DNA from: a virus
Reading direction: 5' to 3' (one strand)
IMG/VR virus record: IMGVR_UViG_3300012943_000031
Span: 32,001-96,000 of that record
DNA length: 64,000 nt
The position numbers and the translations under genes were made by a program. A model generated the notes under the pieces. It did not search any database and was not told the DNA's origin. It saw only the letters and a program-made list of their open reading frames with translations. This document shows positions 20,979 to 21,204 of this stretch, piece by piece (position 1 is the stretch's first letter; each line of letters opens with the position of its first letter).

Positions 20979-21204
20979 AACAACCATAAACTATCGAGTT
21001 ACAACTTGCTGGGTACTTACTGGGTACTTGCGGGGTGTAATTAGGAAACTCAGCACATCTCTGCTTAAAATGGGAGGACTAGCAATCCGTTATTACCAAA
21101 GAGGATGAAACTCAAACAGACTAAGAAGGTGAGCAGTTCTATGAAGTCGGGTTAGAGGATTAGACAAATGATAGTTGATACAGAAAGCTGGTTATTGGGT
21201 TGTT
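20979..21204 (+). ncRNA. rnpB: Compact RNase P RNA
   Basis: P1 AACAACC/GGTTGTT, P2 AACTATC/GATAGTT, P3 TTACA../..TGTAA, CR-I-like AGGAAACTCAGC pairing with ACAGAAAGCTGGTTA (P4 with bulged U), AGACAAATG before the P2 3' strand. Confidence 0.8.

Follow-up and report, generated by a model that had tools for sequence, protein, structure and literature searches.

The analyses presented here support that a 226-nt element encoded by a phage inside an island of tRNA genes is a true homologue of the bacterial type A RNase P RNA which, judging from sequence comparisons, the phage lineage has cut down to its catalytic domain. RNase P RNA, the ribozyme that trims new tRNAs, is considered to be universal among cells. 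The homology is based on an alignment covering the full length of an RNase P model, on the conservation of the core nucleotides, on covariation that includes the P4 and P6 pseudoknots, and on the co-occurrence of RnpA in three genomes. We consider it likely that the RNA functions as a catalytic subunit in the maturation of the phage pre-tRNAs, its catalysis, expression and benefit being inferred. Its partner in this phage, also inferred, is probably the RnpA of the host.

The gene was located at positions 20979-21204 (+) of the window, the 64,000-nt stretch of DNA that was analysed (positions 32,001 to 96,000 of the IMG/VR record IMGVR_UViG_3300012943_000031). Its ends were fixed by a global alignment to the Rfam model RNaseP_arch, and the coordinates proposed in the initial annotation of the stretch coincided exactly with the ends of that alignment. 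The virus record comprises 106,836 bp and has an estimated completeness of 72%; its genes include those for a large terminase subunit and a major head protein. The whole stretch was present in one public run only, a soil metagenome (DNA) from which it probably originates, and there was no RNA run among the public runs containing it. No ORF of at least 30 aa was found on the + strand inside the element. Around it, ARAGORN with default settings called 26 tRNA genes, which form an island of 5.4 kb (16048-21396). The RNA belongs to a unit with the order tRNA-Leu, tRNA-Leu, RNase P RNA, Ser-like, tRNA-Ser and Tyr-like, which is bracketed by terminator-like hairpins, one before it (20787-20810) and one at its end (21511-21532). 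The initial annotation placed the RNA under attenuator 3, a statement that these two hairpins bear out only in part. The gene and its immediate neighbours were as follows:

20899-20978, + strand: tRNA-Leu(UAA), directly 5′ of the RNase P RNA with a gap of 0-1 nt (ARAGORN, Rfam tRNA)
20979-21204, + strand: whole minimal RNase P RNA gene (global alignment to positions 1-288 of RNaseP_arch; 211 bits with the covariance model R1, described below)
21207-21298, + strand: atypical tRNA-Ser(UGA)-like gene with the T-loop UUGGACU, 2-6 nt 3′ of the RNase P RNA (ARAGORN with a relaxed threshold only)

The atypical Ser(UGA) and Tyr(GUA) tRNA-like genes were called neither by default ARAGORN nor by Rfam; in the latter gene (21401-21474), the variable arm is short and the D-arm unusual. 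Regarding the default-called tRNAs (16048-21393), CCA was encoded after the discriminator base in about 9 of 26, the remaining ones mostly carrying C or CA, and the base preceding most tRNA 5′ ends of the island was T. A short ORF, MKITSTYSSLSLLYS (20686-20733), lies 5′ of the first terminator-like hairpin and of the Leu/Leu/Ser/Ser/Tyr unit, and its residues largely match the tRNAs of that unit. The island also contains, at 19935-20007, a suppressor tRNA whose anticodon is CUA (labelled tRNA-Pyl by ARAGORN), followed by a 154-aa ORF (20036-20500). CUA tRNAs were likewise present in L007 and L158, a hint that these phages may recode amber codons. Three consecutive very large ORFs, of 1678, 3158 and 2076 aa, occupy positions 38349-59580 (+) of the window.

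Comparison with Rfam was one of the checks that the initial annotation had proposed for its reading of the element as an RNase P RNA. RNaseP_arch (RF00373, positions 1-288) matched 20979-21204 from end to end, with 28.1 bits (E 1.2e-6) when 241 nt were analysed with Rfam cmscan, 19.9 bits (E 0.0033) on 1.8 kb and 36.1 bits (E 4e-10) in a search of the whole record. However, all of these scores (19.9 to 36.1 bits) lie under the gathering score of the model, which is 84 bits (100 bits for RF00010 and 60 bits for RF02357). In addition, neither the bacterial class A model (RF00010) nor the Thermoproteaceae type T model (RF02357) returned anything at E <= 10 in the whole virus record. Since the Rfam scores are sub-threshold, standard annotation would overlook the gene. 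In terms of minimum free energy (MFE), the RNA did not surpass its shuffles (z = -0.62); MFE folding is unable to model pseudoknots.

The following structural elements were assigned to the RNA, with pairing given as the percentage of alignment cells that are paired:

20979-20985 with 21198-21204, + strand: P1, AACAACC/GGUUGUU, 7 bp; 7 of 7 pairs change on both sides, 94% paired
20989-20995 with 21170-21176, + strand: P2, AACUAUC/GAUAGUU, 7 bp; double changes in 5 of 7 pairs, 93% paired
20997-21042, + strand: P3, an unusually long hairpin with a GGGUACUU direct repeat; from the MFE fold, the outer 4 pairs covary
21043-21054, + strand: CR-I (AGGAA) and the P4 5′ strand AAC[U]CAGC (21047-21054), the bulged U being 21050
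21056-21059 with 21104-21107, + strand: P5, CAUC/GAUG; 4 of 4 pairs covary, 100% paired
21062-21066 with 21131-21135, + strand: P6 pseudoknot with the P17 loop, UGCUU/GAGCA; covaries, first 3 pairs 98% paired
21069-21100, + strand: specificity-domain stub of about 32 nt, formed by a P7-like helix, hairpin Pb and a conserved strand
21071-21073 with 21096-21098, + strand: P7-like helix in the stub; covaries
21076-21078 with 21086-21088, + strand: hairpin Pb in the stub; covaries
21088-21096, + strand: conserved stub strand CGUUAUUAC; family form CGUUnnUAC
21111-21113 with 21155-21157, + strand: P15, CUC/GAG; middle pair UA 14, AU 8, CG 8, GC 3, none unpaired
21119-21122 with 21145-21148, + strand: P16, assigned by eye
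21124-21127 with 21137-21140, + strand: P17; covaries
21149-21154, + strand: 3′ side of L15, GGGUUA, holding the GGU motif; layout as in the RF00010 consensus
21162-21170, + strand: CR-IV, AGACAAAUG (J15/2); aligned to AGucGAAUG of the model, AGAYnAAUG in an independently found set of relatives
21180-21193, + strand: CR-V, ACAGAA (21180-21185), and the P4 3′ strand GCUGGUU (21187-21193); P4 99.1% paired

The helices P1, P2, P3 and P4 with its bulged U, as well as AGACAAAUG and ACAGAA, had already been recognised in the initial annotation and were all found at the places given there. The claim that the specificity domain (S-domain) had been largely deleted was supported as well, with about 32 nt left versus about 200 nt in a normal type A RNA. 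On the other hand, P5, the P15-P16-P17 arrangement, the GGU of L15 and the P6 pseudoknot, whose 5′ strand sits between P5 and the P7-like helix, had not been listed. In bacterial enzymes, the GGU of loop L15 binds the CCA end of the tRNA (3′ RCCA). Inside the stub, the P7-like helix and Pb were paired in 87% and 90% of the cells, respectively. At the position of P18, no more than 4 nt (GAUU) lie between the P15 3′ strand and CR-IV, and P18 is considered absent because CR-IV comes directly after P15. The P3 hairpins of the relatives are much shorter than that of the window copy, whose direct repeat, GGGTACTT-ACT-GGGTACTT (21011-21029), is also self-complementary by means of G-U pairs.

Relatives were collected by combining sequence patterns and a covariance model. 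The core of the element was located by blastn in LR756502.1, a 642-kb uncultured phage genome whose copy gave a global but sub-threshold RNaseP_arch match (32.4 bits). A first pattern, AGACAAATGA...ACAGAAAG, yielded 19 viral loci, of which the one in the IMG/VR contig L007 alone was genuine; the other 18 were rejected as chance matches within ORFs. Scanning metagenomes with a pattern added only the contig L082 among the matches listed. These three copies and that of the window were used to build the covariance model R1, in which only the helices P1, P2, P5 and P15 were annotated while P4 and P6 were left out. With a second pattern, taken from L15, P15 and CR-IV, 67 viral loci were retrieved, 35 of them being strong full-length R1 matches; full-length R1 matches comprised 38 IMG/VR and GenBank loci (36-211 bits). 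A third pattern, derived from CR-I, P5 and P6 only, provided an independently ascertained set of 29 new loci, all of which matched R1 (28 over the full length and L358 partially). R1 also identified a copy in LR756501.1, a 735-kb phage (61.5 bits), and a divergent copy in LR756500.1. Weak R1 matches in L145 (LR756504) and L229 (a terminase relative) were without CR-IV or CR-V and were not counted. After removal of duplicates, the family consisted of about 59 distinct sequences of 180-336 nt and 34-59% GC, carried by viral contigs and by the largest published phage genomes. When cellular genomes were scanned with a pattern, the phage form appeared only in L317, a 2.6-kb MAG contig, among the matches listed. 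Another candidate, L260, turned out to be an ordinary bacterial RNase P RNA of 382 nt.

A cultured phage, Stenotrophomonas phage DLP6, carries, in a stretch without annotation, an RNase P-like RNA of 249 nt located 3 nt 5′ of tRNA-Arg(CCG) (KU682439.2, 105774-106022; L383:1501-1749). This RNA is a global, sub-threshold match to RF00010 (54.7 bits) and aligns with CR-I, P4, CR-IV and CR-V of the window RNA; the R1 search of DLP6 did not pick it up. Some relatives (DLP6 and LR756501) have an insert at the P18 position. The RNA was missing from each of 13 phages that have a related terminase (at 43-73% identity, with three of the 13 at least 90% complete), which indicates that it is dispensable for that lineage and that the gene occurs sporadically and probably travels between large phages that are not related to each other. 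A full-text literature search, most subscription journals being outside its coverage, returned no report of an RNase P RNA from a phage, and RNase P was not mentioned in the main text of the huge-phage paper. The family is apparently an undescribed and widespread phage variant of RNase P RNA.

Base pairs were counted in an alignment of 38 rows (33 distinct) for P1, P2, P3, P5, the P7-like helix, Pb, P15, P17, P4 and P6, leaving out the poorly aligned P16. Standard pairs filled 93.9% of the cells versus 66.0% in shuffles, with 0 out of 500 shuffles reaching the observed value. Changes on both sides were present in 39 out of 49 pairs across the 33 distinct sequences, and the covariation score was 0.672 versus 0.169 in shuffles and 0.10 or less when the partner was slid by 1-3 columns. 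Since neither pseudoknot was included in R1, the alignment had not been fitted to P4 or P6. Both-side changes occurred in 6 of the 7 pairs of P4, which was also paired in 22-23 out of 24 rows of the independent set, with several pair types. P6 switches as a unit between members (UGCU/AGCA, AACC/GGUU and AACAC/GUGUU). Conservation at the pattern positions is partly by construction because the relatives were found through sequence patterns. Nevertheless, several nucleotides outside the search patterns were conserved, namely AGGAA of CR-I (32-33 of 33 distinct rows), the bulged U of P4 (33 of 33, and 24 of 24 in the independent set), A-A-C of J5/15, and the C and A of ACAGAA. In the loci retrieved with the third pattern, CR-IV (AGAYnAAUG) and the GGU of L15 were conserved, neither of them being part of that pattern. 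The stub strand CGUUnnUAC was conserved across the family, and the deletions of P18 and the S-domain were common to it.

These results bear on whether the element could be a decaying, non-functional fragment of a captured host rnpB, or a chance resemblance, as might be thought from the sub-threshold Rfam scores and from its absence in close terminase relatives. Compensatory changes in so many pairs, over sequences that range from 34 to 59% GC, instead indicate selection on the fold, and the same P18 and S-domain deletions are found throughout the family. The covariation rules out both a dead relic and a fortuitous match, and we give such an origin next to no credence.

The genomic surroundings of the copies fit a homologous RNA that matures the phage's own tRNAs. 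Co-oriented tRNAs were present within 3 kb in 39 out of 59 copies, an opposite-strand tRNA in 0 out of 59, and no tRNA at all in 20 out of 59. A tRNA was located at 30 nt or less in 19 copies, and in 15 of these it came after the RNA. In L175, the RNA copy (2888-3079, -) lies about 1.2 kb from a phage tmRNA gene (1263-1644, -). The role in tRNA maturation remains an inference, as data on activity and expression are lacking. The idea that atypical tRNAs would require the RNA, put forward in the initial annotation, is weak and finds no support here, as 26 out of 28 window tRNAs have ordinary T-loops and D-loops. For the same reason, the proposal that altered tRNA elbows accompany the lost S-domain was dropped for the window phage.

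It could also be argued that the RNA is catalytically active but acts mainly on substrates other than tRNA leaders, such as mRNAs, tmRNA or operon spacers of the phage or the host. The loss of the S-domain relaxes substrate choice, and both the 20 copies without a tRNA within 3 kb and the L175 copy near a tmRNA gene would agree with this, whereas the conserved GGU motif in L15, a binding site for the 3′ end of the tRNA, the shared orientation of all nearby tRNAs and the 15 copies closely followed by a tRNA point to tRNA leaders. We therefore consider it quite unlikely that other RNAs are the main substrates; an altered substrate choice remains possible because the domain that reads the tRNA elbow has been lost.

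The protein partner was searched for in six frames with the Pfam model PF00825 (cut-off 22.3). Intact rnpA genes (50-52 bits) were present in three RNA-bearing records, LR756502.1, G002 (171 kb) and G023 (476 kb), the ORFs being L213:1435-1803, L214:1501-1794 and L215:1498-1797. All three proteins share the RNR motif FKRAVDRNRxKRL, and the neighbours of their genes are phage-like and not rpmH/yidC. Thus, LR756502.1 and the 171-kb and 476-kb IMG/VR phages appear to encode both bacterial RNase P subunits. The same PF00825 search found no RnpA in the 106,836 bp of the window record (72% complete), and RnpA was missing from most other RNA-bearing records, so that most of these phages would have to use the host protein.

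The lack of their own RnpA in most RNA-bearing phages would also be compatible with a non-catalytic decoy that soaks up host RnpA or competes for pre-tRNA, damping host tRNA maturation, and there is a precedent in the camelpox RNase P-like RNA, which is reported to be inactive in pre-tRNA processing in vitro (PMC3001073). However, a decoy would need neither the bulged U of P4 nor ACAGAA nor the substrate-binding GGU, all of which are conserved, the gene sits among the phage's own tRNAs, which such an inhibition would harm, and three phages supply RnpA instead of titrating it. Given the conservation of the substrate-binding and catalytic nucleotides and the RnpA supplied by some phages, we regard a decoy as quite improbable and favour a catalytic subunit that acts on phage pre-tRNAs.

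Under this favoured reading, the RNase P RNA would be co-transcribed with five tRNAs, in the order Leu, Leu, RNA, Ser-like, Ser and Tyr-like. Its 5′ end would be freed by the 3′ processing of the upstream tRNA and its 3′ end by RNase P, which would cut where the downstream tRNA begins; this release by flanking tRNA processing is inferred from what the spacing suggests. The RNA would assemble with RnpA, presumably that of the host in the window phage and their own in at least three relatives, and the complex would remove the 5′ leaders of the densely packed phage pre-tRNAs, resulting in extra tRNA-maturing capacity during infection. As a tentative generalisation, about which we are more doubtful than confident, many large phages might carry a private tRNA-maturation module consisting of an RNase P ribozyme, stripped of a domain and able to release itself, that lies within a tRNA polycistron. 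Its ends would be generated by flanking tRNA processing, possibly through its own activity, and it would work with host or phage RnpA and spread horizontally together with tRNA islands; with it, the phage tRNA supply would not depend on the RNase P capacity of the host or suffer from host shut-off.

A conserved, virus-encoded and minimised RNase P RNA would add a ribozyme to the translation-related genes of phages. It would also explain how processing takes place in phages with 25-50 tightly packed tRNA genes. In addition, the family would be a natural experiment on minimal RNase P, in which P6 was kept, P18 and the S-domain were lost and a new conserved stub was gained. Current Rfam thresholds overlook the family, exposing an annotation gap, and the existence of a cultured relative, DLP6, makes the question directly testable.

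Among the known RNase P RNAs, the phage RNA resembles the bacterial type A (rnpB, E. coli M1 RNA; RF00010) in the order and topology of P1-P6 and P15-P17, in the bulged U of P4, in a P6 formed between J5/7 and the P17 loop, in CR-I (GAGGAA), CR-IV (AGAYnAAUG) and CR-V (ACAGAA), in the G-CAA of J5/15 and the GGGUA of L15 with its GGU motif, and in the partner family RnpA, encoded by three relatives. The RF00010 consensus, taken as printed against the ordinary 382-nt bacterial RNA, reads G-CAA-[P15]-AAAUAG-[P16] ... CGGGUA-[P15′]-[P18]-CUAGAUGAAUG-[P2′] ... ACAGAA-[P4′]-UUA, and the phage RNA reads G-AAA/CAA-[CUC]-AAACAG-[GACU] ... CGGGUUA-[GAG]-GAUU-AGACAAAUG-[P2′] ... ACAGAA-A-[GCUGGUU]-A. The two agree segment by segment at J5/15, P15, L15, CR-IV and CR-V, with P18 cleanly missing from the phage RNA. 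In contrast to type A, the phage RNA measures 226 nt instead of about 350-400 nt, lacks P18, has P7-P14 with CR-II and CR-III replaced by the stub of about 32 nt with its own strand CGUUnnUAC, and is encoded by a virus within a tRNA operon; RF00010 gives no match in the window record.

The nearest virus precedent is the camelpox RNase P-like RNA, which is also carried as a gene by a virus; unlike the phage RNA, it is of eukaryote type, comes from an animal virus and is not associated with tRNAs. Among cellular forms, the type T RNase P RNA of the Thermoproteaceae (Pyrobaculum; RF02357) is a natural RNA of about 200 nt that works with archaeal proteins and, like the phage RNA, has lost nearly the whole specificity domain while keeping the catalytic domain (PMC3579882). 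The phage RNA differs from it in its bacterial-type P6, L15 and CR sequences and in the absence of an RF02357 match. Finally, an E. coli RNA reduced to the C-domain (CP RPR) is catalytic alone and requires a P6-like pairing, and P18 becomes dispensable in it once the S-domain is gone (PMC5839562). The parts kept (catalytic domain and P6) and lost (P18 and S-domain) by the phage RNA agree precisely with those of this engineered RNA. The CP RPRs were made in the laboratory and have a reduced efficiency, whereas the gene of the phage RNA is natural and conserved and includes an additional conserved stub.
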